From positions 73,100,001 through 73,164,000 of the forward strand of contig NC_086097.1 of the NCBI RefSeq assembly GCF_963921235.1: a stretch of DNA of 64,000 nt, read 5' to 3'. This stretch comes from Mobula hypostoma. Its lineage: Eukaryota. Positions 10,923 to 62,240 of the stretch are shown in pieces. The translations under genes and the position numbers were made by a program. Under the pieces are notes generated by a model that had not been told where the DNA came from, ran no database searches, and worked only from the letters and a program-made list of their open reading frames with translations. The stretch's first letter is position 1. Every line of letters begins with the position of its first letter.

Positions 10923-11080
10923 CCTGATCACAATAAAGAATGCTGAAATCTTTGCCCACCTACATCCATCCTTTTGCCTATGTATGCCTGCCTTGTAATT
11001 ACAAGATTGTTGGCTTTCAAAGACCCTTTAGTAAACAAACACATGTAACAAGTGACTTGTTTAAGTACTTAGTTAAAAAA

Positions 11081-20877: not shown

Positions 20878-21615
20878 CAACACACATAGTACGCTGGAGG
20901 ATAGCATCTATAGAAGTGAATAAACAGTCATAATTTCAGATTGAGACCCTTCTTCAAGACCAAAATGGAAGAGGGAAGACACCAGAATAAAAAGGAGGTG
21001 GGGAGGAGAAGATGATAGTTAAAACCAAGAGGATGGGAAAGTAAAGAGCTGGAGAAGAAGGAATCTGACAGGAGAGGAAAGTGGACCACAGGAAAAAGGG
21101 GAGGGGAGGAATGATAGGCAGGTGAGAAGAAGTAAAAGGCCATTGGGGAAGAGAAGAAGAGGCAAGGGGGAGTGGAAAAAATTACTGGAAGGAGAAATCG
21201 ATATGCATGCCATAAGGTTGGAGGACACCCAGATGGAATACAGGGTGTTACTCATCTTGGCACAAGAGGCGGCCATGGAACGACATGTTGGAATGTGAAT
21301 GGGAATGGGAATTAAAATGTTTGGCCACTGGGAAGTTCTACTTATGGCAGAGGTGCTTGACGAAGCAGTCCCCCAATTTATGATGGGTCTCACCAATGTG
21401 GAGGAGGCCATGTCAAGAGCAGCAGACGCAATAGACAACCCTAGCAGATTCACTCATAATGTGTTGCCTCACCTGGAAGGACTGTTTGGGACCTTAAATG
21501 GAGGTGAGGGAGGAGGTAAATGAGCAGGTGAAGCTCTTGGGTTGCTTGCAGGGATATGTGCCAATAGAGAGATTAGTGGTGAGGGTCAAATGGACAATGG
21601 AATCATGGAGGGAGC
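20878..21615 (-). mobile_element. Penelope-like element 3' part (GIY-YIG region plus terminal repeat)
   Basis: Same terminal repeat, purine-rich tract and GIY-YIG-coding DNA as 22588-23935. Confidence 0.8.
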
Positions 21616-22565
21616 AATCTTAGATTGGGTGGCTTGTAATAACCCAGATCTTATTAGGGTGCTTAATATAAAGGAACCCTTTGGAGGCGGTGACCGCAAT
21701 ATGACTGAATTCGTACTGCAATTTGAGAGGGAGAAGCACAAGTCACATATATCAATATCGCAATGGAATAAAGGGAATTGTGGAGGCATGAGAGAGGAGC
21801 TTGCCCAGGTGGATTAGAGGGTGATACTGCTAGGGATTATGGCAGAGTAGAGATTGCTGAAGTTTCTGGGAATAGCTCATAGGTACAGGATAGATATGAC
21901 CCACAGAAGAAGTTGTTCTCAAATGGCAGGGGTGGGCAACCATGGCTGACAAAGGAAGTTAAGGACTACTTAAAAGCCAAGGATGCAGCAATAACATAGC
22001 AAAATTGAGTGGGAAGTTTAATGATTGGGAAGCTTTTAAAATCCAACAAAAGACAACTAAAAAAGCTATAAGAAAAAAAGGTGAAATATGAGGATAAACT
22101 AGCTAATAATATAAAGCAGGACACTAATTTTTTTTCAATTATATGAAGAGTAAATGGGAGTTGAGAGTTGATATTGGACCACTGGAAAATGATGCTGGTG
22201 AGGTAGTAATGGGGAACAAAGAAATGGCAGATGAACTTAATGGGTACTTTGCATCAGAGGATGGAGAGCATGCCTTATGAGAATAGGTTGAGTGAACACG
22301 GCCTTTTCTCCTTGGAGCGAAGGAAGATGAGAGGTGACCTGATAGAGTGTATAAGATGATGAGAGGCATTGATCATGTGGATAGTCAGAGGCTTTTTCCC
22401 AGGGCTGAAATGGTTGCCACAAGAGGACACAGGTTTAAGGTGCTGGGGAGTAGGTACAGAGGAGATGTCAGGGGTAAGTTTTTTTTTTTACTCGGAGTGG
22501 TGAGTGTGGAGCTTAGAAAAATAGAGGGCTATAGATAAGTCTAGTAACTTCTAAGGTAGGGACAT
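21616..22565 (+). mobile_element. CR1 LINE fragments (endonuclease C-terminus/tether, then a 3' end)
   Basis: AILDWV.CN.PDLI..EPFGGGDRNMTEF; YKMMRGIDHVDSQRLFP..TRGH. Confidence 0.85.
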
Positions 22566-22587: not shown

Positions 22588-23935
22588 GAAACACACACAA
22601 AATGCTGGAGGAATTCAACAGGTCAGGCAGTATGTATGGAATTGAATAAATAGTAGACATTTCAGGCCAAGACTGTTCTTCAGGACTGGAAATGGAGCAA
22701 AAAATACACTTTTATAAAGAGGTGAGTGGAGGGGAAGGAGAACTTGCTAGAAGGTGACAGTTGAAGATATGTGGGTGGGAAAGATAAAGGTAATGGAGAA
22801 AAAGAAATCTGATAGGAGAGGAGGATAGACCATGGAGATAGGGAAGGAGGAGGGGCACCAGGGGGAGGTGATAGTCAGGTGAAAAGAGATAAGAGGCTAG
22901 AGTGGGGAATAGAAAAGGAGGAGGGGAATAAACAGGAGGAGTAATCAATGTTCATACCATCAGGTTCGAGGCTACCTGGACAGAATATAAGGTGTTGCTC
23001 CTCCATCCTGAGAGTGGCATCATCATGGTAAAAGAGGAGGCAATAGACTGCTGTGTTGGAAAGGGGATAGGAATTAAAGTGGTTGGCCACCTGGAATTTC
23101 CACTTTTGGCTGATGGAGTGGACGTGCTCGATGAAGCGGTCTCCCAATTTATAACGAGTCTTTCCAATATAGAGGAGGCCACATTGGGAGCACAAAATGC
23201 AGTAGACCCCAGCTGATTCAGAGATGAAGTGCAGCCTCACCTGGAAGGGCTGTTTAGGGCCCTGAATAGGCAGGTGCTGCATTTCTGTTGCTTGCAGGGA
23301 TGTAGTGCCTGGAGGAAGATTAGTGTGGAGGGCCAAATAGACAAATGAATCGTGGAGGGAGCGACCTCCAGGGAAAGTGGAGTGATGGTGGGAGTGGTAA
23401 AGATATATTTGGTGGTAGGATCCTATTGAAGATGGCGGAAGTTGTGGAGAATGATGTGTTGGATGTGGAGGGTTATGTAATGGTAGGTGAGGACAAGAAC
23501 TCTATCCCTGTTAAGGTGGCAGGAAGATTGGGTGAGTGCGGATGCCAGAGAAATAGAGGAGATGTGGGTGAGGACAGCAGTGCTGGAGGAAAGGAAACCC
23601 CTTTCTTTGAAAGAGGATATCTCTGATGATGTGGAAAGGAAAACCTCATCCTGGGGAGACACATGTAGAGACAAAGGAACTGAGAAAAGGGAATAGAATT
23701 TCTACGGGGTTTAGGGTGAAAAGATTTACGTATAGTCTAGATAGTTATGGAAATTGATATGTTTATAAAATATGTCGGTAGATAGTTTGTCTCCAGAGAT
23801 GGAGACAATGAGATTAAGAAAAGGAAGAGAGGTGTCAGAAATGAGTGATGAATTTAAGGGCAGGGTGGAAGTTGATGAAATTGACAAACTTAGTATTGGT
23901 ACATGAAGCAACAGCACTGCAGTCGTCAGTGTAGT
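22588..23935 (-). mobile_element. Penelope-like element: RT C-terminus, GIY-YIG endonuclease, terminal repeat with decayed hammerhead motif
   Basis: LPFLNL...LSTDIFYK..HNYLDY (PLE RT) and VYCILCSQCGLLYIGKT..LGDRFIEH (GIY-YIG); minus-strand CTGAAGA...GAAATGTC at 22652-22688. Confidence 0.9.
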
Positions 23936-24049
23936 GCAGGATCTGCAATGGCCAGCACCTGTATGTGGTGAGATCTTTTCATACAGGTCAGTGATTATGA
24001 TGTATCTCTTGTTCACACTTGTTTAAAATTAAAAATGAGTTAGATTCTA

Positions 24050-25199: not shown

Positions 25200-25385
25200 G
25201 GAGAAGCAAGAAATTGCAGTTGCTGGAATCTGGAGCAACATGGTACTGGAAAAACTCAGTATGTCCAGCAGCAGCTGTGGGGTGAAATGAACAGTCAACG
25301 TTTTGGGTCGAGACCTTTCTGTCCATTGCCTTCCATAGCTGTTACCTGACCCAACTGAATTTCTCCAGCACGTTTTGTGTATTCC
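25200..25385. mobile_element. Penelope terminal-repeat fragment pair in inverted arrangement
   Basis: cagtcaacgttttgggtcgagacc followed by the reverse-oriented ctgacccaactgaatttctccagcacgttttgtgt. Confidence 0.7.
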
Positions 25386-26964
25386 TTGGAAAAACAATCG
25401 ACTGTTTTCATGTTGACTTTCTCTTTAAGTTTGGGAGGAACTACTCTCAGAATGCAGCATTATTCAATGTCAACAAACTTCATAATTTGCTAGAATTAAT
25501 ATTCTTTGTTAAGAGTAAGAATTTGTTTTCACTTTCCTTTGATGTCTTGTGATACAATTTAGACAATGGATCATTTTTTTCTCCTCCAATTGGACTGGTT
25601 TTCAATATTTTGAAACTTCCTCCTATTGATTCAGATATAATTTTTTCCCCCACTGTAGCCTTTACCCTTGTATTTTCGCTGCATTACAGAGCTCTCCTGG
25701 TGATCAAGCTCATTGTTCCCATCTCATATAGCCTAATTCCTCTATGCCCATTACCTGATTGGATTTCCACTTAGAATCTGCTGACTTTTCAACTCCTCCT
25801 TCATCTGCCACTTTGGTTTTTTCATTCTCTCTGATATCGCACTTGGTTATATGAGACAAACCTCCTGGAACCCTTTCCCTTCTATTGCTCAAATGCTCAT
25901 TTTTGGCTCTCGTTATCTGGCATGAACAGTTTCCTTTCCTCAAGCATGCTTGTTCTTCCTTTCAAAGATGTTACCAGTCTTTACTCAAATTACGTCGCTG
26001 ACTTACAATATTTCTTTCAGATCCTAGAGCTTACAATTCTTTCTAATGGAATAATACAATTCAATATACTCAGTGCCAGAAAAAACTGTTAGTCTTGTAG
26101 GATCGAACTACAATTTAGGAATCTTATTTTAGATATACCTGGCATCATTGCTGCTTCAGTTAATACGTTAATTTTTGAATGACTCAGGATCTGACCGGGC
26201 ATTGTTTCAGTTAATCTGATAAATCTTCTGTTGGGATCTGGATGCTTGTTTAGAAAAATTCTCAATCCATTCCGTAAATTGAATCCTTTTATTTGGTTGT
26301 ATTTGGTACAGTTTGGATTTTGATCAATGGATGAATTTTCTTGAGGGCACTTCAAATAGCCTGCATTCACTTCAAGGATCCGATGGAGCTAAGTTCAGCT
26401 GCACATCCAAAACACAGCATAATGTACATCAGCAATGACAAACTGTCAAATTCTGGCTTGGGGCCTGATCCATAGCCACTTGACGGCTCAGTGGCAACAC
26501 CCTTATCTCCAAGCTTGAACGAGACATTGTCCCTGGATAGAAGTATTTTAGGGGGGAGGGGTGGGGTGTAAAGTTAGCAAGTTACTAATAATCCATAATG
26601 CTGCTAAATAATATGTTAAGCTCTATTACAGTTTTGTTCTCAATCAGCCAATGTGCTGTCAGACTCTGAGATTTAATTGGAGTCTGTTGCTCTTTCTTAA
26701 TCCTTTCCAGAGTTTAATTGTGCAGAGTTTTTTTTCTGAACTACGTGCTTGCAAGTATTTTTATTCCCTGATGATCTCAAGGGTCAGTACTTTTGGTGAA
26801 GGTTCTATACTGAAGATGTTTTGATTTTCTAAAATAATTCTAGTTTGTGTAAGATGTGATTTTTAAAAAAAAAATTAACTTGGGTAGATTATAATAATTT
26901 TATTAAAAGTAAATCTAATTAAATAGTACAGAGAACTGAAATGTATATTTGTTTTATCTTTTAG

Positions 26965-27002: not shown

Positions 27003-27156
27003 ATGAGTGCCAAATCTGCTATCAACAAGGAGATTTTTGCTCCACATGATGAGAGAATGCTTGCAGCCGTCCAGGTCAAACGAAGAACCAAAAAAAAGAT
27101 TCCATTTCTTGCAACAGGAGGTCAGGGGGAATATTTGACCTACATCTGCCTGTCAG
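27003..27156 (+). CDS. STXBP6: First coding exon of syntaxin-binding protein 6 (amisyn); 154 coding nt, phase-1 donor
   Basis: Translates MSAKSAINKEIFAPHDERMLAAVQVKRRTKKKIPFLATGGQGEYLTYICLS, nearly identical to the vertebrate amisyn N-terminus as I recall it. Donor TCAG|GTAAAG at 27156/27157. Polypyrimidine acceptor TTTTATCTTTTAG| ends at 26964. Confidence 0.95.
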
Positions 27157-27894
27157 GTAAAGTTAATGTGACAGTTGTTTTGCTTCCTTCATTGACATCT
27201 TTCTGATTACTTAATTAAATGTCAGCAGCTAATGAAGAGATGAAGTGGTGTACATTCAAATAAAATTAGACGGGCAAAACTCATTCATTTATCTTCAACT
27301 TGGGACAAAGCAAAAGGGGTTAAACTAGTGTTATGTTGTGCAGTCAGTCTGAAAAACTTTTAAGACTTGTAAGAATATTCATGAAAAGAACGGGTATGCA
27401 TTTTTAGAATGGAGGTTGTGCAATTACAAAAATGCTTCACGGGCGTTGTCTGTACTCCGAACTGCTTTGGATTGATTTGTCTGTTCTTACACACTGTCTT
27501 GTGATCAGTTTGAGACCAAGGAAAATCTAGGTTAATAATGAATATGGTTCATTGTGTAGGAAAATAACTAAAGGGCAGGAGAGAATATGTATTAGTGCTG
27601 TGGTGTGAAGTTAGCAATTTGAGATTGCAATCTCACATTGTTATGGAAAACAAAGATAGATAAATGTAATCACTTCTAGGCTGTGGCAAAGAAATTTCAT
27701 TACCAATATTTGTCTATTACTTATAATGAAAAATGGTTATAATGTCCTTTGTGTAAGAGAGCCTGTGATCTTACCAACTGTTTGGTACAGCTTCATCTAA
27801 TCTTGGGTATCACTTAGTCCCAAACTGAGTTGGTTCTTAGTAGCCATAGACAATTAATACTACGTTATTTACACTCAAATATATAAACTACTGT

Positions 27895-29233: not shown

Positions 29234-30550
29234 ATACAGTAACTTGAAAAAGTATTCAGCTCTCAACCCTTTGTTCACACAAATGAGCATTATAACCATG
29301 GACTTCGATCAATTTACCAGACTTTTTATTTGTGAATCACGTACTCCTTTTTCAAAGTAGAGTCCAAAAAACAGGGTACAGTGAAAAGCATGGAAAAACT
29401 AAAAATTTGAAAACTGAAATGTCAGTAGTTCAAAAGTATTCATCCCCTTTTTATTAGTACTTAGTTGAACCATCTCTTGCAGCTATTCCAACCTGTAGTC
29501 CTCTTGGATAATGCTCTATTAGCTTTACACAGTGTGACAAAGCAAGATATGCCCATTCCTCTTGCAAGATTGCTCAAGCTGTGCCAGGTTAGCTGGGCAG
29601 CTGTTGTGGCAGCAATCTTAATGTCTTGCCAGAGATGTTTGGGTTAAGGTCAACTCTAACTGGGCCATTCAACAACATTAATTTTCTTCACTCGAAGCCA
29701 CTCCATGCTTGCAGTGGCAATGTGCTTTGCGTCATTGTTCTGCTGAAAAACTAACTTCCTCCCCAGTTTTAGCTTTCTGGCAGAGGCTAGCAGGCTTTTT
29801 ATCCAGGGTATCTCTGTATTTAGCAGCATTCATCTTCCCATCAACCCTGACCAGATTTCCAGTCCCTGATGCTAAAAAGCATCCCCATAGCATAATGCTA
29901 CCCCCACCATACTTTACAGTAGGGTTGACGTTACCTGCCTGGTGTGCAGTATTACTTTTATGCCACACATACTGTTTGGTGTTGAGGCCAAAAAGTTTCA
30001 TAGTAGTCTCAACCACAAAACAACCTTCCAAAACTTTACAATACCTTCCAAGAGAAGCTTTTCAATGTCTTTACGGAAAGGGCATGTTTTTTTTTTTAGC
30101 CAGGACTGCTTCCTTGCCACTCTTCCGCAAATGCCCATTTTTGCCAAGGCCTTAGAGACTGTAGAGCCATGAACTTCATCTCCAGTTGCAGCCACTAATT
30201 TCTGCAGCTCATTCAGATTGACGGTTGGTATCACAGTAGCCTCTCTTACAAGTGCCATTCTTCTCTGGCAACTGAGTTTAGAAAGGTAGCCTGACCTAGC
30301 CAGTGAGTCAGTGGTTTCATATTTTTGCCACTTTTTTATGATGGGATGCACTGAGCTCTGAGTTGTGTCAGTGCATTTGAGATGGTCTTATACTCTTCCC
30401 CAGATTTGTGTTTCTCTATTATCATTTCCATGACTTGTCATGAATGCTCTTTTTATCCTCATTTTGGTTTGGTCTGTTAAAATTCTACCATACTGTTGGA
30501 CCTTAGAGAGGGGATATTTATTCTTATGAATGTATTGAAAACACACACTG
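29234..30550 (-). mobile_element. Tc1-family DNA transposon, decayed
   Basis: [33 protein letters not shown] and HTH region; left end TA-CAGT with repeated AAAAGTATTCA motif (IR/DR-like); right TIR largely missing. Confidence 0.9.
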
Positions 30551-39050: not shown

Positions 39051-40407
39051 CATTTGACAAAGTGCTGCAAATGTTAAAGCTGTGAAGGTGGAGCATTGGC
39101 AACTTCAGTTGCCACCTTTGCTTCCTTGATAACTGAGGAATCATCCCTTTTACAGCAGGTGACTTCTATTTTAAGAATACCTAACTTTTAATTGCCTTTT
39201 CTATTAAATATCACTGCTACCTTCATTGGCAGAATCCTTGTTGGAGAAGGCAGTTCTGAAATAGCATCTATACCTCTGTTCAAAATGTCTTTGTAATTTT
39301 AAAAGTCAAAGGCTGCATATGCTAGAAATCTGAAAAAAAAACAAAATGCATTGTCAGTTCTGACTTTCAGATGATCTTGTCAGCTCTTTGATGTACATGC
39401 TGTTTTAAATCTGTGAGTAAGGGCGTTGGTCCTCCTTAAGCTAGTTTCATGAAAACACATCATTTTGCATATTCCCTTTGTGTTTCTCTGTGCAATGCTT
39501 TGGAATATCTTGAGGTGAATGTGAATGCATGCGCCAGCTTGATGTTGAGGTGTGGCTCCACGGTCTCGTATGAGGAACAAAAATGTGATTTTTTTTCATT
39601 GATTACTTCATAATAGCCTTGTAGTTTTTAAAAAGTGCTGATTTTAGAACAACGCTGATTTTTGCAGTGAAGTCATGCCACTTATTCCCTGAAAGATGTT
39701 GCAATCGAACAATCCTTGCACAGTGGACAAACAGTTTTCCAGTTGCATTTGCTTTAGGTGTTAGTTAATGGGGATCCTAATGCTTAACAGCTGTACTGTT
39801 GGGTCAAATGGGCTGTGGAGCTGATTACTGAAGAAGTTTCTCAAAGCAACATAAGGAAAAAACAATTTTAAGCATGTTCAAACCTTTTGCAGAGGCTGGA
39901 ATCATTTTTTGGAATACAAACAAAGATTAAAGCAGAAGCTGAAACATCACTTAAATTATTTTAAATACAAAATATTATGAAATATTTATCCACAAACAAA
40001 TTGTTCAGTAAAAATTACAGCTTTATAGGGCATTTAAAAAAAATCTTGTCTTCTCCAATAAAGCTTACCATTTTTGAGATTTTGAGTAGTGAGAATAGTT
40101 TGCCTATGTCTGGACATTCTGCAAGATTAATGTTCACTGTAAAAAAAAATGTTGAAAAGCAGTGCATCCTGTTCAGGGGCAGGGAGTTGCTGAAACTTCA
40201 GTCTTTCTGGTTAATTACATGTATAGACTCTGTATGCTGATGCCTGCATCAAGGGTGCAGATTCATATTAATTCTTCGTACATTCATAATGTTCAGGCCT
40301 TTTATGAGGATTACAAAATTGCAGAAATATGAATAAGCAAGATTAGCATTCTGAAAGAATTCTAATTAAGAACATTATCCATATCCCTTCCCCGTAACAT
40401 TATCTCA

Positions 40408-40705
40408 ACAAGAGAAAATCTGCAGATGCTGGAAATCAAAACAACACACATAAAGTGCCTGAGGAACTCAGCAGGCCAGGCAGCATCCATGGAAAAAAGT
40501 ACAGCTGACGTTTCAGGCTGAAGCCCTTCAGCAGGGCTGAAGAAGAAAAGCTGAGGAGTAGATTTGAAAGGTCTAAAGATTTCAAATCTACTCCTCAGCT
40601 TTTTTTCTCCAATTCTGCCGAAGGGTTTCAATCCGAAATGTCAACTGTACTTTTTTTCCATAGATGCTGCCTGGCCTGCTGAGTTCCTGCAGCTTTTTGT
40701 GTGTG
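40408..40705. mobile_element. Palindromic Penelope terminal-repeat insertion with variant hammerhead motif
   Basis: Inverted arms about 40445-40568 / 40580-40706; imperfect 20-bp TSD (17/20) at 40388-40407 and 40706-40725. Confidence 0.85.
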
Positions 40706-41899
40706 TTCCCCATAACGTTATATCACCTTTGCAACCTCTTTCAAATTCCTTACAACTGATCTCGTATCTATGCTCCATCAGCTGTTGAGGCTTCAATCAT
40801 CTAAGCTAATATAAGTTGTTGATAAAAGCAGTCAGCTTCAGGTAGAAAATGTTTTGTCAGAACTAAAGCTGTAACCTACCCCCTCTATTTTTGTACCTAA
40901 CGTCCTCACTTGCCTATTGACTTGATCAACTTGAGTGTTAATTGGAGGCTGAGAATTGTTTGCTTGTTCAGCACATATTGAACCAAATGGAATCCAAGCT
41001 GAAAGTTCATGAAAGAGCAGCTAATTAGTATGTGTTCAGTATCGCACAATTGTGACTGATCAGAAGACGTTAAATCAACTAAAGCTTCCAAGCAGCAATA
41101 AAATTAGCTTACACCAGCACTTTAAATGAAGGAAATTGTACTGGTTGAGCCTCATTGGATATCTATTTTCAGCATCCAATAAGACTTGACTTGCTAATTA
41201 TCCTTTTGAGAATTTATAGCTGACCACTCAGTATTCTGGAAATGTTCCCACTATCCACCCTCCAAGTGCTAAGTGTTTTTATTTTTGCCTTAGCTTTGGG
41301 TTCATTAGGCTAAAATATACTCAGATGTACTTCATATGATATTATGTGCATATCAATATCAAACTGATATTTTACTGTTCATTACTTTTTCATATGCTGC
41401 ATGAGTAACGTGAAGTTTGAACTTTAGAGCAGTACAGATCAACATGGTGATGACTGATTGAAATCTATTAAATGTTTTCGTGACATTTATAGGAAGAGGG
41501 CAATAAAGACAACTGAATCCTTAAAAGGCACGTTAAGGATAGGAATAGAAACCAGGAAGGGTCATTCAGCCCACTGTACCTGATCCATTATTATTCAGTA
41601 TGATTGTGACTGGCCTTTCAATTCAGCAGATGAAGAAATTGCTGATAAATTATTAGTTGTAATTTTTCAGATGCAATGCAATTTAATCAAGAAAAATGAG
41701 AAAGAGTAACCAGAAAATTATTGACTACATATACTGTAATCTACTTGAGAATTTTGAACCAAATAGAGTGTCATTATTATGTGTAATTGGTAATTTGTGC
41801 CTAGTGAAACAGTTGACTGATGGATCGTCTTGCTATGGAGTTTTTATATTTTAGTGGAATGCATTTGTTATAATACTTAAATATTTACAGTTTATCATC

Positions 41900-43730: not shown

Positions 43731-45142
43731 AGGTTGAGGTAGTTTAATTTCATTTTTCATTTTTTTTAAGAACTCAGAAACTTGTGAACAAGCATTATGG
43801 TATGCTACTATCACAAAATTAAATTGCTCTCCTGTTGACTGATTGCAGTGACTTTGACTTTTTAGTGAACTGTGCAAATTCAGAGTTTGTTTGCCTACGG
43901 AAATGTTGTTATTAATGGTCTTGGAGACTTCTATGCTAGATTGCTCTGTTCTTGAGCTAGCACTTCACATATTCCATGATACAGAATGCCTCACATTTTT
44001 GGCTACCGATCAAGTTGTGCAGTGATCCACAAAAGTTGCATTAATTAGGAAACTTGTGCCAGGAATGTGATCCTGTTTTTTTTTGCTGGATTGAATATGT
44101 TGATTGATAGCTTAAATGATAGAAATGTGTTTAAGTAAAATAAATCATCATTCTGATTGTTTAGGGGAGGCCCTTATGGCATTTAACATTTGTTCAGAAT
44201 GGTCGCATTGTTATATTTTCTATCATATTCCTTTACCTGATATTTTACTTATTGAAATCAGTATATCGGTGCAGGGAATATATTTTAATGTAATTTTTTT
44301 GGTATGATTAGTGGATTTTACACCTCGCATCATAACTGAATGACAGTCATATTTTTCTATAAATAGTGATGCTTCTGCAAGAACAGGTGAATTGTTTTTG
44401 ATCTCCATTCTCAGTATGTGAATTTCATTATCTACAAATTTCTTCTTGCCCATTCCACTTCAAGACTGAAAGCTGTGCAGTCTCTGCATTTGCTTTGATA
44501 GCTGAGTAGAGTTCTCTGAATTTCCAGAGATAATCATTTTTGGTCTGTACTCAAAGTTACTACACGTGAATGCACTGAAACCTGATTCTACAACATAGTT
44601 ATGATTTCTCCCAGCTTGTACATGCAAACTGAAGGTTTGTAATGAGCAAGATTGTACACATAGTTTGGAATATAAAATATTCAGTTTTAAATTATAGTAT
44701 CATTGTTGTCTTATATTATAGTATTTTATTTATTTGGACATAAATTTAATAGAAATCAACTGACTAAGGCTTTAATTTTAAAACCTCTGCAATATAGTTA
44801 CATATTCAGAGACGTCGTGGTCAGTGTACTGCATACAAATTGCAGCATTAGTGTTAGAACAGAATCTCCCCACTTTTTTTAATCTGTATTGACTAAAATC
44901 AGAAAATGTGTTTATATTTAAGGTTTGGAATTGATTGCTGGACTACATCACATTGTCTAGTGATAGATTTTGACAGTAGTGGTGCACGAGGGGTTTGTAG
45001 CTGGGGGATGTTTCTTACTGTGTGTAATTTTTTTTAATATAAAATGTCGTTTTACTAAATTGGGCAGACGTTTGGGAAGTTTGGTATTGCACACAGTGTA
45101 GAGTGATCAAGGTTTGTAGCAAAAGGCAGATTCAAAAATGGA

Positions 45143-45248
45143 AACAGCAGAGTCCTGACGAAGGGTCTCGGCCTGAAACGTTGACTGTACCTCTTCCTAG
45201 AGATGCTGCCTGGCCTGCTGTGTTCACCAGCAACTTTGATGTGTGTTG
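45143..45248 (+). mobile_element. 106-bp solo Penelope terminal-repeat insertion
   Basis: Perfect 12-bp TSD TTCAAAAATGGA at 45131-45142 and 45249-45260; body matches the PLE termini elsewhere in the window. Confidence 0.9.
45151..45186 (+). ncRNA. Minimal type I hammerhead ribozyme motif (PLE-type)
   Basis: AGTC-CTGACGA-AGG(GTCTCGG)CCT-GAAAC-GTT-GACT: stem I AGTC/GACT, core CUGANGA, stem II AGG/CCT, GAAA, palindromic ACGT stem III, GUU cleavage triplet. Confidence 0.8.
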
Positions 45249-45544
45249 TTCAAAAATGGATGTCCTTTTTACATTATTATCATGAGATGAGTTTGGCAGA
45301 TTGTTTGCTTTTATTTGTGAGCAGAGTATTTGATGGATTGAATACTCAATTGTACTAAACTGGAATGTTCAGCTGACTGCCTATCCTGTCAAATCCTGCC
45401 TGTGGGACCAAAGATGTTCCAATTTAATAAAATATATTCCCCCTCTGCTCTTTGTTAAAGGGCGTTGTCAGAAATGAATAAACTGAATTTAATCCAGACA
45501 TTCAGAACAATAACCAAATTATAATGAAGCATGGTTTCAGATGG

Positions 45545-45830
45545 CCATAGAGCTGTACGACGTAGAAACTGCCCTTTTGACCCACTGTGTCAATGCTGAA
45601 CATCTATGCTTATATGTACCAATCCCACTTGCATTAAATCCATACCCCTCTATGCCCTGCTCATTCAGTTATTTGCCCAGATACATCTTAAATCTTGTTG
45701 CTGTTCCTGCCTCCACTGCCACCTCAGGCAGCTCATTCCAGATACCAATTACTATTTGGGGGGAGAAAAAACTTCCTGAATCTCCTTTAAACCTCTTCCC
45801 TGTTACTTAAGCCCAAGGCCTCTGGTTTTA
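45545..45830 (-). mobile_element. CR1-type 3' end fragment
   Basis: cctgcctccactgccacctcaggcagctcattccag matches the CR1 3' regions at 37140 and 63545. Confidence 0.65.
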
Positions 45831-46079
45831 GGGAGTGAATTTTAATTTGGATATGGCCAAAGAGCTCTTGAATTAATGAAGTTTAGCACTCCACTGATGT
45901 ATCTGCTGTAAATGAAGTACAATAAGAGCTACTTTCTGTTTTCTGATCTGTCTTTTCTCAAGCTGGGATCTTAGTAAGAAATTAAATTTTTTCTCCTAGC
46001 ACTGGCTGTTTAAAAATAAGTGTGGTATACAGGCAAGAGAACAATTTTCTTTTTCAAACACACCTTTATCATTATAAAG

Positions 46080-46510
46080 GAGAGGCAAGCTTTAGTGGGA
46101 GTAGCCATTTTGAGAGGGCTGCCTTGAGGCAGTTAAGTTCATAGTGTGGGCTTCGATGAGTAGGATAAGTAGTGACTATGTAAGGTTTTTAATCTTACTA
46201 TCGTAATTGAAGGTAGTAGACACAAGTTATGGAGGCTAGGTGGTGCCATGTTCTACCTATAGTTTGAAGTTAATGTTTCAAAGTCCCTGACATCATGGAA
46301 GTCCTTCGTATATGGGGAGATGGGGTGGGTTAAGAGTGCTGGATGTTGGGGTTGGGGGGGAGGAGAGGGATGATGGAAGGTAATTCTGTTGTGTGGAAGG
46401 CAGATTGATGTTCCTGTGGTTGCATGTTGACAAATAGACTTCTATGTGCTTGGGTCAAGGATATCTCTGAGTAGCTGCTGGACATTCTGAAAGGCTGACC
46501 AGCTAGAGGT
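46080..46510 (+). mobile_element. CR1 5'/ORF1 remnant
   Basis: gtcaaggatatctctgagtagctgctggacattctgaaagg (VKDISE.LLDILKG) resembles the CR1 ORF1 esterase region. Confidence 0.5.
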
Positions 46511-48735
46511 AGTGATGCTTATAAAAAGTATTTACCCGCCCCCCCCCCCCACACTTTGGAATTTTTCATGTTATATTGTTTTACATTATTGAATCATAGT
46601 GGATTTAATTTGGCTTTTTGACACTAATCAACAGAAAAGACTTGTGTCAGAGTGAAAGCAAATTTCTACAAATTTGTGGTAAATTGGATTAGTAAGTATA
46701 CAGATGATAGTAAGATAGGTGGTGTGGATGATGAGGTAGGTTTTCAAAACTTGCAGAGAGATTTAAGACAGAAGAGTGGGCTGAAAGATGGCAGATGGAG
46801 TTTAATGCTGAAAAATGTGAGGTGCTACATTTTGGTAGAACTAATCAAAATAGGACATACATGGTAAATGGTAGGGCATTAAAGGGTGCTGTAGAACAGA
46901 GGGATCTAGGAATAATGGTGCATAGTTCCCTGTCTCATGTGGATAGGGTGGTGAAGAAAGCTTTTGGTTTGCTGGCCTTTATTAATCAGAGCATTGAGTA
47001 TAGGAGTTGGGATGTAATGTTGAATTTGTATAAGGCATTGGTAAGGCCAAATCTGGAGTATTGTGTACAGTTCTGGTCACCGAATTATAGGAACGATGTC
47101 AATAAAATTGAGAGAGTACAGAGGAGGTTTACTAAAATGTTGCCTGGGTTTCATCTCCTAAGTTACAGAGAAAGGTTGAACAAGTTAGGATTTTATTCTT
47201 TGGCGCGTAGAAGGTTGAGGGGGTCTTGATAGAGGTGTTTAAAATTATGAGAGGGATTGATAGAGTTGACGTGGTTAGACTTTTTCCATTGAAAGTGGGG
47301 AAGATTCAAACGAGGACATGGGTTGAGAGTTAGAAGACAAAAGTTTAGGGGTAACATGAGGGGGACTTCTTTACTCGGAGAGTGGTAGCTGTGTGGAATG
47401 AGCTTCCAGTAGAAGTGGTTGAGGCAGGTACAATGTTGTCGTCTAAAGTTATATTGGATAGATATATGGACAGGAAAGGAATGGAGGGTTATGGGCTGAG
47501 TGCAGGTCGGTGGGACTAGGTTAGGGTAAGAGTTCGGCATGGACTAGAAGGGCCGAGATGGCCTGTTTCCGTGCTGTAATTGTTATATGGTTATAAATTG
47601 GTCTAAATTTATTATAATTATTAAACACAAAATAATTGATTGCATAAATACTCACCCTCTTGAAGTCTGTATTTAGTAGATGGACCTTTGGTAGCAATTA
47701 TAGCCTTGAGTCTGTGTGGATAGGCACAGAGCTTTGCACAACTGGACACTGCCATTTTTCCCCATTCTTCTGTACAAAACTGCCCAAGCTCTGTCAGATT
47801 GCATTGGGATCATGAATGAACAGCCCTTTACAACTCTAGCCACAAATTCTCAATTGGATAGACTCTGACGTGGCCACTCCAGGAGATTAACTTTGTTGTT
47901 TTTAAGCCATTCCTGTGTAGCTTTGGTTTTGTGCTTGGAATCATTGTCTTGCTAGAAAACAAATCTTCTCACAAATTGCAGATCACTTGCAGACTGCAGG
48001 TTTTTCTTGAGGATCCCCCTGTATTTTGCTGCATTTATTTTACCCTCTACCTTCACAAGCCTTCCAGCACCTGCTGCAGTGAAGCATCCCCATAGTATGA
48101 TGCAGCCACCACCATGCTCACGGTAGGGATGATGTGTGGTATTTGGCGTACACCAACATAGTGTTTAATCTGATGGCCAAAAGCTCAATTTTGGTTTTAT
48201 CAGACCATAGAACCTTCTTCCAGCTGAGACTCCCACATAACTCCTGACAAACTCTAACTGAGATTCCATGTGAGTTGTTTTTTTTTCCAACAGCGGCTTT
48301 CTCTTTGTCATTTTCCCATAAAGCTGCAACTGGTGAAGCACCCGGGCAACAGTTGTTGTATACACAGTCTCTCTCATCTCAGCCACTGGAGGTTGTAACT
48401 CCCCCAGAGCTGTCATAGGTCTCTTGGTGGCCTCCCTCACTAGTCCCCTTGCACGGTCACTCAGTTTTTGAGGATGGCCTGCTCTAAGCAGATTTATAGT
48501 TCTGCCATATTCTTTCCACTTCTTGATTGAACTATACTCCAAGGGGTATTCAGTGACTTGGAAATTTTCTTCCATCCATCTCCTTACTAGTGCTTTTCAA
48601 CAACCTTTTCATGGAGTTGCTTGGAGTGTTCTTTTGCCTTCATGCTGTAGTTTTTGCCAGGATACTGATTCACCAGCAGTTGGAAATTCCAGATAAAGGT
48701 GTGTTTTTACTACAGTCAATTGAAACATCTTGACT
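46511..48735 (-). mobile_element. Tc1-family DNA transposon, decayed, split by a CR1
   Basis: ORF 48165-48575 (IKKWKEYGRTINLLRAGHPQKLSDRARGLVREATKRP); catalytic-region DNA at about 48000-48160; repeated aagtatttaccc/aaatactcaccc motifs at about 46525 and 47645. Confidence 0.85.
46676..47595 (+). mobile_element. CR1 LINE 3' part inserted in Tc1; close sibling of 55290-56205
   Basis: YTDD, MEFNAEKCEVLHFG, LYKALVRPNLEYC; tail tgttatatggttata. Confidence 0.92.
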
Positions 48736-51261: not shown

Positions 51262-51658
51262 TCACCCAAGAAACTCTGCTAATGCTGGTAATCCAGAGCA
51301 ACTTGCACAAAATGCTGGAGGGGCTCAGCAGGTCAGGAAACAGTCGATGTTTCGGGCTAAGATCCTTTAAGCGTCTTCCCCCTTCCTTTCCAGTCCTGAA
51401 ACCCTTTCTTCTATGGTCCACTCTCCTCTCCTATTAGATTCTTTCATCTCTAGCCTTTTACCTTTCCCATCCAATTGGCTTTACCTAGCCCATTCTAGCT
51501 AACCACCTTCACCCCGCCTTTTATTCTTGTCTTTCCCCCTTCCTTTCCAGTCCTGAAAACACCATTGATACTGCCCTTACCTGCATCTCCTCCATTCCCC
51601 TGACAACCATGCACATCCCACTTCCCGCCATCTTAACAGAGAGATAGTTCCTCTAGTC
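51262..51658. mobile_element. Penelope-like fragments (inverted terminal repeat plus RT C-terminal part); continue at 53112
   Basis: cacaaaatgctggagg..cagtcgatgtttcgggc terminal repeat; 51560-51658 is homologous to the reverse complement of about 23500-23600. Confidence 0.75.
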
Positions 51659-53111: not shown

Positions 53112-54032
53112 CTCCTTGTCTTTACTATCACCTCATGAGCCTCTAGATCCAACTTTCACCATCTCTTCAGCTTCCACCATCTTCAAAGGAATGCTATCAC
53201 CAAACAGATCTTTACCTCCCCCACCCCACTGTCAGCTATCCACAGGGATCACTCCATCTATGATTCATTTGTCCTTTTGTGCCTCCCAACACTTATTCCT
53301 GCAAGCAGCTACAGTGCCACACCTGCCCATTCACCTCCTCTCTCACCTCCAGTCAGGATCACAAACAGTCCTTCCAGGTGAGGAAACACTTCACCTGCAA
53401 ATCTGCTGGGGTCGTCTGTTGTATTTGGTTCTCCTGATGTAGCCTCTTCTACGTTGGTGAGAGCCATCGTTAATTTGGGGACTGCTTCTTTGAGCACCTC
53501 CATTCCATCCACCAAAATCGGAACTTCCCAGTGGCCAAACACTTTAATTCCAGTTTCCATTCCTGTTCTGATATGTTGGTCCACAGCTGCTGCTTGTAAC
53601 ACGATGAGGCCATCTTCAGGGCGGAGGAGCAACACCTTGTTTTCCATCTGGGTAGCCTCCAACATAATCACAAGAATATCAATTTCTCCTTCCAGTAATT
53701 TTTTTTTCTTCCCTCCTTCTCTTCCCGTCTTCTATTCCCCACTCTGGCCTCTTACTACTTACCTGCCTATCACTTCCCCCTGGGTCCCTTCCTCCTTCCC
53801 TTTCCACTCTCCTCTCCTATCTGATTCCTTCATCTCCAGCCTTTACCTTTCCCACCCACCTGGCTTCACCTATCACCTTCAAGCTATCCTTCACCCCCTC
53901 CACCCTCCCACCTTTTTATTCTGGCGTGTTCCCCCTGCCTTGTCTCAGAGCCTGAAATGTCGACTATTTGTTCATTTCCATGGATGCTGTCTGACCTGCT
54001 GAGTTCCTCCAGTATCTTGTGTGTGGTGCTTT
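53112..54032 (+). mobile_element. Penelope-like element 3' part with GIY-YIG and terminal repeat
   Basis: Homologous to the reverse complement of 22600-23500; pyrimidine tract, then gcctgaaatgtcgact...gagttcctccag (hammerhead 5' core deleted). Confidence 0.85.
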
Positions 54033-54439
54033 TCTTTAATATCACTGCTTTCTCTCCACAGTTACTGCCAAAGCTAATGAGTATTTCAAACACATTTAGT
54101 TTTTTTTATTTTTAGGAATGGAGAGAGACAAAGAGGTGGAAGGAAAGGCAACAAAGCAGAGGGGTCCAGAAAATCTGTGTAGCTTCAACATTTCCGCCTC
54201 CATCACTTCTCCAGCACCACCACCACAATAAAAATAAACTCTCACTTTTGTTCCTAACTATTGTCAAGTTTGCCTGGGGTAACAAGTCACTGAGTTTTAA
54301 CAAAAAGGCCTGAGCCTGCAACTTGTGTCACAGGTGCTTCATTGGTGCTCTGCTTTTGTGTTAGCAATTGCCTCCTGTGAGGCTGTCTTGCTCACTGAGC
54401 CCACCAACCATCAAACACCAAATGTTTAGACTGATCCTA

Positions 54440-56207: not shown

Positions 56208-59200
56208 TTAGACCATAAGACAAAGGAGCAGAAGTTGGCCATTCGGCCCATCGAGTCTGCTCCGCCATTTTATCATGAGCTGATCCATTCTCCCATTTAG
56301 TCCCACTCCCCCGCCTTCTCACCATAATGTTTGATGCCCTGGCTACTCAGATACCTATCAATCTCTGCCTTAAGTACACCCAATGACTTGGCCTCCACTG
56401 CTGCCCGTGGCAACAAATTCCATAGATTCACCACCCTCTGACTAAAAAAATTTTCTTTGCATTTCTGTTCTGAATGTGCGCCCTTCAAACCTTAAGTCAT
56501 GCCCTCTCGTACTAGACTCCCCCATCATGTGAAACAACTTTGCTACATCCACTCTGTCCATGCCTTAACATTTGAAATGTTTCTATGAGGTCTCCCCTCA
56601 TTCTTCTAAACTCCAAGGAATACAGTCCAAGAGCGGACAAACTTTCCTCATATGTTAACCCTCTCATTCCCGGAATCATTCTAGTGAATTTTCTCTGTAC
56701 CCTCTCCAACGTCAGCACATCCCTTTCTTAAATAAGGAGACCAAAACTGCCCACAGTACTCCAAGTGAGGTCTCTCCAGCACATTATAGAGCCTCAACAT
56801 CACGTCCCTGCTCCTATACTCTATTCCTCTAGAAATGAATGCCAACATTGCATTCGCCTTCTTCACTACTGACTCAACCTGGAGGTTAACCTTAAGGATA
56901 TCCTGTACGGGACTCCCAAGTCCCGTTGCATCTCTGAACTTTGAATTCTTTCCCCATTTAAATAATAATCTGCCCGTTTATTATTTCTGCCAAAGTGCAT
57001 AACCATACACTTTCCAACATTGTACTTCATTTGCCACTTCTCTGCCCATTCTTCCAATCTATCCAAGTCTCTCTGCAGATTCTCCATTTCCTCAGCACTA
57101 CCGGCCCCTCCACCTATCTTCGTATCGTCAGCAAACTTAGCCACAAAGCCATCTATTCCATAATCCAAATCATTGATGTACAATGTAAAAAGAAATGGCC
57201 CCAACACGGACCCCTGTGGAACACCACTGGTAACTGGTAGCCAACCAGAATAGGATCCCTTTATTCCCACTCTCTGTTTCCTGCCAACGCTCTATCCGCG
57301 TATGTAACTTTCCCATAATTCCATGGGCTCTGTTAAGTAGCCTCATGTGTGGCACCTTGTCAAAGGCCTTCTGAAAATCCAAATATACAACATCCACTGC
57401 ATCTCCTTGTCTAGCCTACTGGTAATTTCCTCAAAAAATTGTAATAGGTTTGTCAGGCAGGATTTTCCTTTAAGGAATCCATGCTGAGTTCTGCCTATCT
57501 TGTCATATGCCTCCAGGTACTCTGTAACCTCATCCTTGACAATCGACTCCAACAACTTCCCAACCATCGATGTCAAGCTACACACATCAAAGTTGCTGGT
57601 GAACGCAGCAAGCCAGGCAGCATCTGTAGGAAGAGGTGCAGTCGACGTTTCAGGCCCGAGACGAAGGGTCTCTGCCTGAAACGTCGACTGCACCTCTTCC
57701 TACAGATGCTGCCTGGCCTGCTGCGTTCACCAGCAACTTTGATGTGTGTTGCTTGAATTTCCAGCATCTGCAGAATTCCTGTTGTTTATCAATGTCAAGC
57801 TAACAGGTCTATAATTTCCTTTTTGCTTCCTTGTCCCCTTCTTAAATAGCGGAGTGACATTTGCAATCCTCCAGTCCTCCGGAACCATGCCAGAATCTAT
57901 CGACTTTTGAAAGATCATCGCTAATGCCTCCGCAATCTCCACAGCTACTTCCTTCAGAAAACACGGGTGCATTCCATCTGGTCCAGGAGATTTATCTACC
58001 CTTAGACTATTCAGCTTCCTGAGTACTTTCTCTGTCGTAATTGTGACTGCGCACACTTCTCCTCCCTGCCACCCTTGAGTGTCCGGTATACTGCTGATGT
58101 CTTCCTCAGTGAAGACTGATGCAACATACTTGTTCAGTTTCTCTGCCATCTCCTTATCTCCCATTACAATTTCTCCAGTATCATTTTTTATCGGTCCTAT
58201 ATCTACTCTCACCTGTCTTTTACTCTTTATATACTTGAAAAAGCTTTTAGTATCCTCTTTGATATTATTTGCTAGCTTCCTTTTTTTAGTTAATCTTTTC
58301 CCTCTTAATGACCTTCTTGGTTTCCTTTTGTAAGGTTTTAAAAACTTCCCAATCCTCTGTCTTCCCACTAATTTTTGCTTCCTTGTATGCCCTCTCCTTT
58401 GCTTTAACCTTGGCTTTGACTTCTCTGGTCAACCACGTTTGCATCCTTTTTCCATTTGAAAATTTCTTCTTTTTTGGAATATACCTGTCTTGCACCTTCC
58501 TCGCCTTTCGCATAAACTGCTGCCACTGTGCTCTGCCGTCCTTCCCGCCAGTGTCCCTTTCCAGTCAACTTTGGCCAGTTCCTCTCTCATGCCACTGTAA
58601 CTTCCTTTACTCCACTGAAATACCGACACATCAGATTTCGGCTTCTCTTTTTCAAATTTCACAGTGAACTCAATCATGTTATGATCACTGTCTCCTAAGG
58701 GTTCCTTCACCTCAATCTCTCCAATCACCTCTGGTTCATTACACAATACTTAATCCAGTACAGCCGACCATCTAGTGGGCTCAATAACAAGCTGTTCTAA
58801 AAAGCCATCTCGCAGACATTCTACAAATTCTCTCTCTTGAGATCCAGTGCCAACCTGATTTTCCCAATCCACTCGCATGTTGAAATCCCCCACAATTATC
58901 ATAACACTGCCCTTCTGACAAGCCTTTTCTATTTCCTGTTGTAATTTGTAGTCACATCCCTGCAGCTGTTTGGAGGCCTATAAATAACTGCCATCAGGGT
59001 CCTTTTACCCCTGCAATTTCTTAGCTCAACTCATAAAGATTCTGCACCTTCCGATCCTATATCACCTCTTTCTAATGATTTAATATAATTTCTTACCAAT
59101 AAAGCCATGCCTCCCCCTCTGCCTACCTTCCTATCTTTCCGATACACCGTGTATCCTTGGACGTTCAGCTCCCAGAGACATGCATCCTTTAGCCAGGTCT

Positions 59201-59232: not shown

Positions 59233-61888
59233 CTTGTTATATGGTTATACACAGTACCCAGCTACAAACTGCCATAAAATAAGCATGAATATGTAACTTA
59301 TCCCTTTATTGCCATGCCCCTACTAATGTAACTAGTTACCATAAGAAACATGATAGATATGCAACACAGAATACATGGCTGCTACATTCCAGCCCCCTAA
59401 TCATTATACTATAATAATTATAACGGCATGCTACGAAGATACAGGAGACATGAAATCTTAACATTTACACAAATGTTCTCCTTTGGTAAGCAGTCCATCT
59501 TGGACTTTGCCCTCCTGCCAAACCAGGTTGTTCCTCTTGACCACATTCAGAAAAATCTGTCTTGAAACTCTGTAGCTAGAGCTCAGCAAAGTGCAAAACT
59601 GAAGTCCCGTTAACGGTTCTGGCAGAAAGTAGTTTCTTCCATCATCATGGTCTCCTTTCAATGGTCCATTAACATTCCAGCCTACCACTGTTATGATTTC
59701 ACAGGGACTATCGTTAACACCGTGGATCAATTCCAACAGCTCAAATACTTTAACCACATTCATCCCTATCAATAGCTCAATTTCTGGCAAAAAAAGGCAT
59801 TCTTCAGGTGAGACCATTCCTGAAGATCTCCTTGATGAAGAATATTCCCTTTGTGGACAGGCATATGTTCCTATGTATAGATGTTAGACAACTTGCATTA
59901 GTTTTTACTGTCCAAGCCATCCATTCACAATACTGAAATGAAGTAGCTACTCACAACATTTTCTTGATCTGTGGTGCATAAGGGAATGCGTGTTCCTTCT
60001 CCTGTTAGGTTGAGCTTGTTCATGAGACTCACTGTACAGAACACTGCAGTACTCCCTTGATCTAGGAGAGCATAAGTAACTACTGTCTTGTTACTCTTCT
60101 TAGATTTCACCTGAACTCAAATTAGAGGAAGTTCACAATCATAATCATAAGACCATTAGACACCAGGGCAGTACTCAGTCCTGTGTTTGCTTCATTTATG
60201 GCTTATTTGGAATCTGCACCTTTTTCATCAGCTTCAGGCTCAGTTTCACTTTCCACAGTACCGTGGTGGCAATGCTACTTCCTTTAGCTTGAGAATAAAT
60301 TTGTGATCTAGTTTTGTTCACACCTTTACTTACTGCTGGCAATGTAGCCTTGTATACCTTCCCAAACATGGGTGTGTAACAATCTTCATTTGCCTTTCAA
60401 TTAAAATCAACAATGTCAGTGAAAGTAACCTTGTGGTTCTTTCTTGCAGCTCATATACCCTTGATCTTCATTCTTTTCTAAGCTCATTGGGCAATTTACC
60501 TATGACAATCTTCATATCAGCAGGCATGTTCAACTCGTGCATGCCTTGCAAGTCTTCCATGGTATTGCAACAACTTGAGAAAAAGACTGTAGTCTTGAAG
60601 AGTTTTTGTGTCTTCAGATTTTTAATATGCTACCAAGAAAGAGCCTTTTCCATGTCGGCACAACAATTATCTGCTCATCGACAAAGATTTCCTGGGGTAA
60701 AGCTTGAGCCTTCAGTGCACCATTTAGACCTTTCTTATCTGAAACGCAAGTGTCATTGTACACTGTGTCCTATTGGATATGGCACAGGCTCAGAGTACCT
60801 CTTTGGTGCAGGCTGAGAGTGAACCACCCCTTGGGTTTTAAACTCGTGGCTCATAGTCTTTTGATTCTGAAATGTATCCAATTTGACACTGAGTATGCTG
60901 GATTTTCTCTGTTCCATGCCAACATAGGAACTCTCACCAAAGAACTGTTCTGCTGGAGCATGTTTAGCACTCAGAGCATATGAAGCCCTTAGCACTTTAA
61001 CTCTGGCCATCTTGGCTGCGATTTCTTCTTGCAATTTAAACTCCTCCATGTTCCTCCAAAGCTGATCCACCTGCTGTTCCTGGCTTCTTCAAAGCTGTCC
61101 CTGGTCTTTTCGAAGCTGTTCTACCTTTTTCTTCAAGGCATGCTTATTCCTCACCCATCTGTTGTCTTGTGTATAACTGAGCTAAATCAGCCTCCGTTGT
61201 AATGTTCAGACACACAGGACATCATTCTGCTAGGAACGGAGCGTGTTCCATGCATATTAGACATGCTGTCTTCAGCGCGTACGCATCCTGTAACTTATCA
61301 GTTGTCACAGCTTGCTCTTTGTCTTCATAAATATTTTCATTTTCCTCAGGGAACTGACCTCCAACAGCACGTTTATTTAATTTCTCTCTTAGCTTCAAGG
61401 TTGCTGCTTCCAGCTGAAATAATTTTGTCTTCCAAGTGCACAGATGAGACAAAACAATGTCAGTTTCAATTCAGCTTTTCAACGATAGAAGCAATTCAAT
61501 TATTTCAATTCTTCAGCATTCAACAGAACCACGGGTCGAACACTTCAGGCAGCCACCACTACAGCTTTCCAGTCTAATCCAGTTGGACACGACAACGTTG
61601 ACCACTTCAAAACTGTTTCAAATTCATACACACAGCGTGAAACAACAAAGGTCATACTTGCCATAAGCCACTCTAGGCTAGTGCTTCCAACTTCTCAGAT
61701 ACATCTGAGTGTTGATGTTCATTTGGTGTAACTGTTGAACCTTTGCTAACAAAATGCAGCAGCAAAATTGATTGAAATTGATCCAAGCGAAACAATTGCC
61801 ACCAGCATATGACCCCACAGAGTTGCTAAATTTACATGACTTGCCCACAGCTCCAATGATTGCTCCAAAGAGTTGAAGTCCCTTTTTG

Positions 61889-62240
61889 AAACATGAAAAA
61901 TTCTGCAGATGCTAGAAATCCGAAGCAACACAGACAAAATGCTGGAAGAACTCAGGCCTAGACCCTTCATCACGACTGGAAAGGAATTGGAGAGGAGTCA
62001 GACTAAGAAGATGGGGGAAGAGGAGGAAGGTGGCAGGTGTTAGGTGAAACCCGGGAGAGTGGGAGGGCGTGAAGTAAAGAGCCGGGAAGTTGATTGATGA
62101 AAGAGATAAAGGGCTGGAGAAGGGGAATCTGATGGGAGATGGATGAAGACTGTGGAAGAAAGGGAAGGGGGAGGAGCACCTGAAGGAGGAGATGGGCAAG
62201 TAAGGAGATAAAGTGAGAGCAGGAAACAGGAATGGGGAAT
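61889..62240 (-). mobile_element. Penelope terminal fragment inserted in the BEL 5' LTR
   Basis: ctgcagatgctagaaat..caaaatgctggaagaactcagg..gacccttcatcacgactgg followed by a purine tract. Confidence 0.85.

Follow-up and report, generated by a model that had tools for sequence, protein, structure and literature searches.

An extremely short insertion with a target-site duplication in Mobula hypostoma, very probably a Penelope-like element end with a passive hammerhead motif

Can a mobile unit consist of little more than a hammerhead ribozyme, and could such a unit cut the transcript of the gene that hosts it? This question is raised by a 106-bp insert in the stretch of Mobula hypostoma DNA analysed here (64,000 nucleotides, referred to as the window). 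An earlier note had described it as a TSD-flanked (target-site duplication) mobile unit, either retrozyme-like or an extremely truncated Penelope-like element (PLE), which could nick the nascent STXBP6 intron if it found a partner copy. Our analysis points strongly to a plainer answer: the insert is a real, TSD-flanked insertion and very probably an ordinary, if extremely short, piece of the terminal-repeat end of an abundant PLE, in which the hammerhead is likely a passive passenger.

The perfect 12-bp duplication (TTCAAAAATGGA) reported in the earlier note is present as described, with 12 of 12 positions identical at 45131-45142 and 45249-45260 and 106 nt in between; the odds of such a 12-mer occurring by chance at one given place are 1.3e-7.

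45131..45142, plus strand: left copy of the TSD; 9 of 12 bases are A/T; single copy at the empty site in runs X12 and X13
45249..45260, plus strand: right copy of the TSD, from repeat comparison and empty-site contigs

Contigs of four sequencing runs (four of the 24 listed) were aligned on 44800-45600, X5 being a second sample of organism A, X6 organism B, X12 organism C and X13 organism D. In organisms C and D, one contig each links 45130 to 45249 and skips 118 nt, with 12 letters that fit on either side, i.e., an empty site with one target copy. The empty site that the earlier note had proposed to look for in related species was thus found in both, and a TSD arising by chance is ruled out by it. 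In organisms A (X5) and B (X6), contigs lie over each insert junction, and none of those listed covers the whole stretch. The four runs are accordingly divided into two with the empty site and two with filled junctions, where contigs demonstrate presence and not absence, so that an empty allele in A or B is compatible with the data. Leaving gaps aside, the locus contigs differ from the window at 0 letters in X5, 14 of 760 in X6, 20 of 682 in X12 and 26 of 681 in X13, and many of the differences are common to C and D against A and B. Because the empty site is found in C and D, the filled junctions in A and B, and the sequence differences are shared along the same line, the 106-bp insert is a genuine insertion, and it probably dates to an ancestor shared by A and B, after the split from C and D. 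It is of modest use as a clean presence/absence marker that separates A and B from C and D. A 10-nt direct repeat immediately upstream (44992-45001 and 45111-45120, 119 nt apart) is likely a chance occurrence.

The host gene was located through a single exon.

27003..27157, plus strand: start-codon exon of STXBP6 and the GT donor after it, from protein identity and the donor

The plus-strand translation of 27003-27155 is identical in 51 of 51 residues to the start of the named Mobula hypostoma STXBP6 protein, and the insert lies about 18 kb downstream on the same strand, which bears out its earlier assignment to the STXBP6 sense strand. Within the 64-kb window, no further STXBP6 exon was found downstream. 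Judged from the gene structure, the insert most likely sits in the intron after the start-codon exon. Creation of a splice acceptor by the insert was considered and rejected, as the pyrimidine tract that the family carries before the AG at 45151-45152 is absent here.

The insert itself is composed of two parts, the longer of which begins with the hammerhead motif.

45143..45150, minus strand: 8 nt lacking collinearity with the element, likely the 3′ tail tip in inverted orientation
45151..45248, plus strand: 98-nt PLE pseudo-LTR end that stops at the inner 3′ end, without the tail
45151..45186, plus strand: minimal type I hammerhead motif, from sequence; predicted site after U45182
45151-45154/45183-45186, plus strand: hammerhead stem I, 4 bp
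45155-45161, plus strand: CUGACGA box
45162-45174, plus strand: stem II region, with wobble pairs
45175-45178, plus strand: GAAA box
45178-45181, plus strand: palindrome ACGU, replacing stem III
45182, plus strand: position 17, a U

The phrase “little more than a hammerhead” needs correcting on two points: the motif accounts for just 36 of the 106 nt, and collinearity with the element is lacking over the first 8 nt. The 98-nt part shares 94-95% identity with the copies at 57660-57751 and 57580-57662 and 79-82% with six older copies, and its 3′ end is that of the TSD-flanked, ~900-nt copy at 53115-54028. Upstream of 45151, contigs at least 85% like the insert carry on into the pyrimidine-rich UTR that the long copies also have. 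The 8 nt at 45143-45150 are unlike the element's upstream sequence, the relatives having a pyrimidine tract at that place. In the closest relative, the tail tip (57779-57786) taken as minus strand agrees with them in 7 of 8 letters; as a background, 0.27% of window 8-mers match this well near the tail tip and 12% do so anywhere in the repeat end, and a second, equal source (7 of 8) is the reverse complement of the insert's own 45215-45222. The variants of X6 include G>A at 45147, at a distance of 31 letters from the end of a contig, as would be the case for the locus contig, whose end is at 45177; if this change in the X6 table does belong to the locus contig, the 8 nt of the organism B copy would match the tail tip exactly. 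An A at 45147 is also seen in one contig of X12 and three of X13, and because both runs have the empty site, junctions like that between 45143-45150 and 45151 may recur at other loci. The insert is likely the smallest case of a two-arm layout, with an inverted arm of 8 nt and a main arm of 98 nt.

The same terminal repeat is plentiful in the surroundings of the insert. A BLAST search of the insert against the window returned nine other matches at E<=0.001, to which longer queries added two, and 11 other pieces of this repeat lie in eight other insertions, of about 0.2 to 1.4 kb, within 64 kb. Including the insert, the nine family insertions range in size from about 0.1 to 1.4 kb and have common 3′ ends. 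Related contigs number 4,442 to 24,649 per run, with nearly all of their depth on the insert, a figure that is not a copy number; the PLE family is a very abundant repeat. Three of the window copies are particularly informative.

22588..23978, minus strand: longest family copy, ~1.4 kb, decayed; RT end, Cys linker, GIY-YIG, 3′ UTR, hammerhead region and inner 3′ end
53115..54045, plus strand: ~900-nt family copy with a GIY-YIG remnant, an insert-like 3′ end and a 17-nt duplication with 2 mismatches
57566..57802, both strands: closest relative, an inverted two-arm insertion within another retroelement; duplication of 14-15 nt with 1 mismatch

In the longest copy, the GIY-YIG domain is detected by PF01541 (E 8.8e-5; 23.2 bits versus a cut-off of 22.6), and tblastn and the translation agree with the layout of the copy. 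Altogether three copies (22588-23978, 53115-54028 and about 20880-21620) extend upstream into remnants of the RT end, the Cys cluster and GIY-YIG; the insert is 80-82% identical to the ends of these three, of which the copy at 53115-54028 is about nine times longer than the insert. The extremely truncated PLE considered in the earlier note is supported by this repeat end shared with GIY-YIG-bearing copies, and the widely differing lengths of window relatives with the same 3′ ends argue for a simple truncated PLE. The tail of a CR1 or other LINE is ruled out, since the long relatives encode GIY-YIG. No autonomous element of the insert's own subfamily was seen in the window, where the two 94-95% relatives are themselves short. 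The family is likely of the Neptune type, as assigned from the Cys linker motif with only decayed RT ends in the window, because a Zn-finger-like linker between RT and EN marks Neptune and Nematis, as described by Craig et al. (2021, PMC8557442), and the vertebrate PLE groups are Neptune and Poseidon according to a preprint in which one cartilaginous fish was sampled (Li et al. 2026, 10.64898/2026.07.22.740005). A pattern scan found no further copies in metagenome contigs, viral contigs or prokaryote genomes, none of which is expected to carry ray DNA.

Twelve aligned 3′ ends, read by eye, fall into two classes: seven stop within a few bases of the inner end, and five continue 36 nt further. 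This 36-nt tail, present on 5 of the 12 ends, is absent from the main arm of the insert. Inverted pairs with one arm of each end class are found at 57581-57787, 40407-40707 and 25205-25390; in the closest relative, a short minus-strand arm (57581-57662) adjoins a plus-strand arm with the 36-nt tail (57660-57787). TSDs were found for four of the nine family insertions in the window, and the search returned none for the other five. The insertion at 57566-57802 is young and lies within an RT-encoding, LINE-like copy on the minus strand, between the ORFs 56866-57291 and 57727-58428 that flank it, and the 5′ core box is gone from both of its arms. An older inverted two-arm PLE insertion of ~300 nt at 40388-40722 forms a long near-palindrome, with a duplication of ~16 nt containing mismatches. 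At 51262-51560, a minus-strand PLE piece with the tail stands beside two plus-strand UTR pieces, both of which end a few bases inside the hammerhead core; no TSD was found there. The minus-strand PLE end at 61885-62240 carries an internal deletion of ~48 nt, having lost the 3′ half of the hammerhead and kept the tail. On the minus strand at 22685-22707 and 61975-61997, as in contigs, a pyrimidine tract and CAG directly precede the hammerhead. They resemble a 3′ splice site of the spliceosomal kind, placed where stem I begins. For the Penelope intron of Drosophila virilis, an end at this very position is described (PMC4209133), and the present family may carry a similar intron.

Under our preferred explanation, the element's own protein would have cut A/T-rich DNA, and reverse transcription would have ended after fewer than 100 bases. 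Both cut DNA ends would have primed, one at the inner start site to give the 98-nt arm and the other at the tail tip to give the 8-nt inverted arm. Such two-sided priming would resemble that of the larger two-arm copies and be in line with the two start sites used in vitro by an anole PLE: as reported in PMC11167929, the anole protein cuts and extends both strands in vitro from two start sites bounding the tail, and the tail, inverted arm and 5′ truncation are among the PLE traits described in PMC8557442. The insertion, its TSD, the empty site, the GIY-YIG homology, the two classes of 3′ ends and the inverted copies are the observed part of this explanation. Speaking against a PLE stub are the similarity of only ~80% to copies with coding remnants, the TSDs at just four of nine insertions and the fact that the insert holds the sole full core among 12 slices, as well as the A at 45147 in runs with the empty site and the second, equal source of the 8 nt. 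The insert may be a very compact natural case in which both sides primed, each at one of the two start sites flanking the tail; on twin priming in PLEs, the titles and abstracts of a limited literature collection held nothing on point. If two-sided priming is true here, it would extend the in vitro result, obtained on a Poseidon element (PMC11167929), to a likely Neptune-type family of cartilaginous fishes.

Two other origins for the insert were weighed against this one. It might belong to a discrete non-autonomous mini-element of ~106 bp, consisting of the tail tip plus the hammerhead repeat end and copied by PLE protein, which we regard as improbable. Such an element would agree with a 5′ boundary at the base of stem I, with the change at 45147 in eight contigs of three runs (four of them in runs without the insertion), with a summed depth at 45147 of 82-136 in X6, X12 and X13 versus 6-8 in the flanks, and with several of the listed joints, which resume at 45150-45152. 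However, these joint and depth figures represent a handful among tens of thousands of contigs, and the count at 45151 is inflated, since the alignment of any relative that continues upstream has to break off there. Moreover, no second copy with the insert's junction occurs among the 11 other window pieces, and no site is listed where many molecules begin or end, contigs being weak for such a test. That ray genomes hold a recurring ~106-bp mini-element, in which an inverted tail tip meets the PLE repeat end at the base of stem I, is likewise unlikely. If true, such a unit would represent the shortest product favoured by two-sided priming, or else a non-autonomous family that propagates itself, and would rank among the smallest hammerhead-bearing mobile units, and a recurring junction class would matter more. 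There is very little chance that the insert is a solo monomer of a non-LTR retrozyme, spreading via self-cleaved circular RNA. According to Cervera and de la Pena (2020, PMC7229834), non-LTR retrozymes occur in tandem, carry type I hammerheads of the canonical form and are expressed as circles; the insert is like them in being non-coding (no ORF), in its type I hammerhead motif, in its long TSD and in its kinship to PLE repeats, from which animal retrozymes derive according to the Li et al. preprint, where monomers are also reported. Yet its hammerhead is of the minimal PLE type without helix III and not of the canonical retrozyme type, no tandem array was found in 44000-46500, and its 3′ end coincides with that of long PLE copies, with which it is collinear. 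A unit defined by cleavage would be expected to begin after position 17; the insert starts at 45143, 40 nt before the base following position 17, and is thus off the cleavage site. The retrozyme-like option of the earlier note is therefore not upheld for this insert, which is not tandem and whose ends are not set by cleavage. As a separate observation, a few contigs of X6 read to about 45217-45226 and restart at 45150-45151 (the one whose direction is given goes back 77); they might stem from retrozyme-like arrays elsewhere in the genome, built of ~75-nt tandem units that each hold a whole hammerhead.

A further reading concerns the function rather than the origin of the insert: its hammerhead, helped by PLE protein or by a partner RNA acting in trans, would be active, nick the nascent STXBP6 intron and affect the gene. 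The motif is on the sense strand and, as the earlier note had stated, all core letters are present (CUGACGA, GAAA and the U at position 17); in a descriptor scan with a 4-bp stem I on both strands of the window, 45151-45186 was the only site. GUU is a permitted NUH site, RNAs of so abundant a family are likely plentiful, and the insertion has been kept in organisms A and B. Against activity, however, U17 takes the place of the family's C, which makes up 94, 89, 82 and 71% of the summed contig depth of relatives in the four runs, and GUC and GUA are the fastest hammerhead sites in the review PMC3138052, which lists GUU as allowed; our literature search found no report comparing hammerhead rates at GUU and GUC. 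The new 5′ junction removed the upstream C, so that stem I has one pair fewer than in copies retaining this base, and the pair probabilities of stems I and II are 0.18-0.31. G10.1 faces U45174 and not the conserved C, or alternatively an A-U pair closes the stem without the extra base; a U opposite G10.1 is common to most window copies and so possibly a family trait. In the folding model, the active dimer geometry is predicted at -8.9 kcal/mol, two monomers reaching -16.8 and the best cofold -25.1; these scores are weak evidence, as folding models omit tertiary contacts and Mg and penalise all hammerheads. Compared with shuffled sequences, the 106-nt fold has a z of -0.09, which is uninformative either way about the hammerhead. 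Among the 12 window slices compared, only the insert keeps all four core marks, and the window contains no other sense copy with an intact core that could serve as a partner. The Rfam check suggested by the earlier note gave no hammerhead at the gathering score in the whole window and none at E<=10 in 44900-45500; a hammerhead without stem III would not be expected to score in these models.

Published work on related motifs points the same way. As reported in PMC4209133, a single minimal hammerhead gave no detectable cleavage and dimers gave low cleavage; dimer cleavage of PLE hammerheads was also addressed by Lunse et al., as cited in the review PMC6765202. The anole PLE motif is described in PMC11167929 as cleaved only with PLE protein and as dispensable for insertion, with no RNA-seq reads ending at its site, and eight of nine frog retrozyme dimers are reported without product in the Li et al. 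preprint. The motif is also missing from two close relatives and hence is not a conserved host element. We infer that the hammerhead is probably inactive or nearly so in this setting; nicking of the STXBP6 intron appears unlikely, and the full scenario with an effect on the gene extremely so. The matter would carry more weight if host introns were nicked at a measurable rate by the sense-strand members of this very abundant family.

Compared with known systems, the insert is closest to 5′-truncated, EN+ PLEs of the Neptune type. As described in PMC8557442 and PMC11167929, these share with the insert and its family the hammerhead repeat end, a variable 5′ truncation, an optional tail of 30-40 nt (36 nt here), inverted 5′ arms, which are clear in three other window insertions and likely in the insert, and an A/T-rich target, and the long relatives in the window likewise carry the RT end, the Cys linker, plus GIY-YIG at the C terminus. 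The differences are only of degree, the insert being ~100 nt long with a likely inverted arm of 8 nt. Its motif resembles the minimal hammerheads that metazoan PLEs carry (Cervera and de la Pena 2014, PMC4209133) in the core boxes, the lack of a true stem III, the palindromic 15.2-16.2 and the short helix I (4-5 bp), but differs from them, as they are described there, in the U facing G10.1, the short helix II and the U at position 17. According to the same source, these minimal motifs are mostly single and come from truncated PLEs, by the thousands in fish, coelacanth and frog genomes; the hosts named in the part drawn on here are fishes, coelacanth, Xenopus and reptiles, cartilaginous fishes not being among them. 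Because single minimal hammerheads from truncated PLEs are already widespread in vertebrates, the insert as it stands matters little. On PLEs or hammerheads in sharks and rays, nothing on point was found by title or abstract in the limited literature covered. The conserved hammerheads in amniote introns, for example that in RECK (PMC6155905), are likewise type I motifs in sense orientation; however, these are described as conserved across whole classes, whereas the motif of the insert is young and minimal, the insert being absent at the orthologous site from organisms C and D at a flank divergence of 3-4%.

Apart from the PLE family, the window holds a fairly intact, RT-encoding LINE remnant on the plus strand at 11073-12779 (RVT_1, E 2.7e-23; three ORF pieces). 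This remnant looks RTE-like, and the ORFs at 29682-30387 and 48165-48596 resemble remnants of Tc1/mariner transposases.
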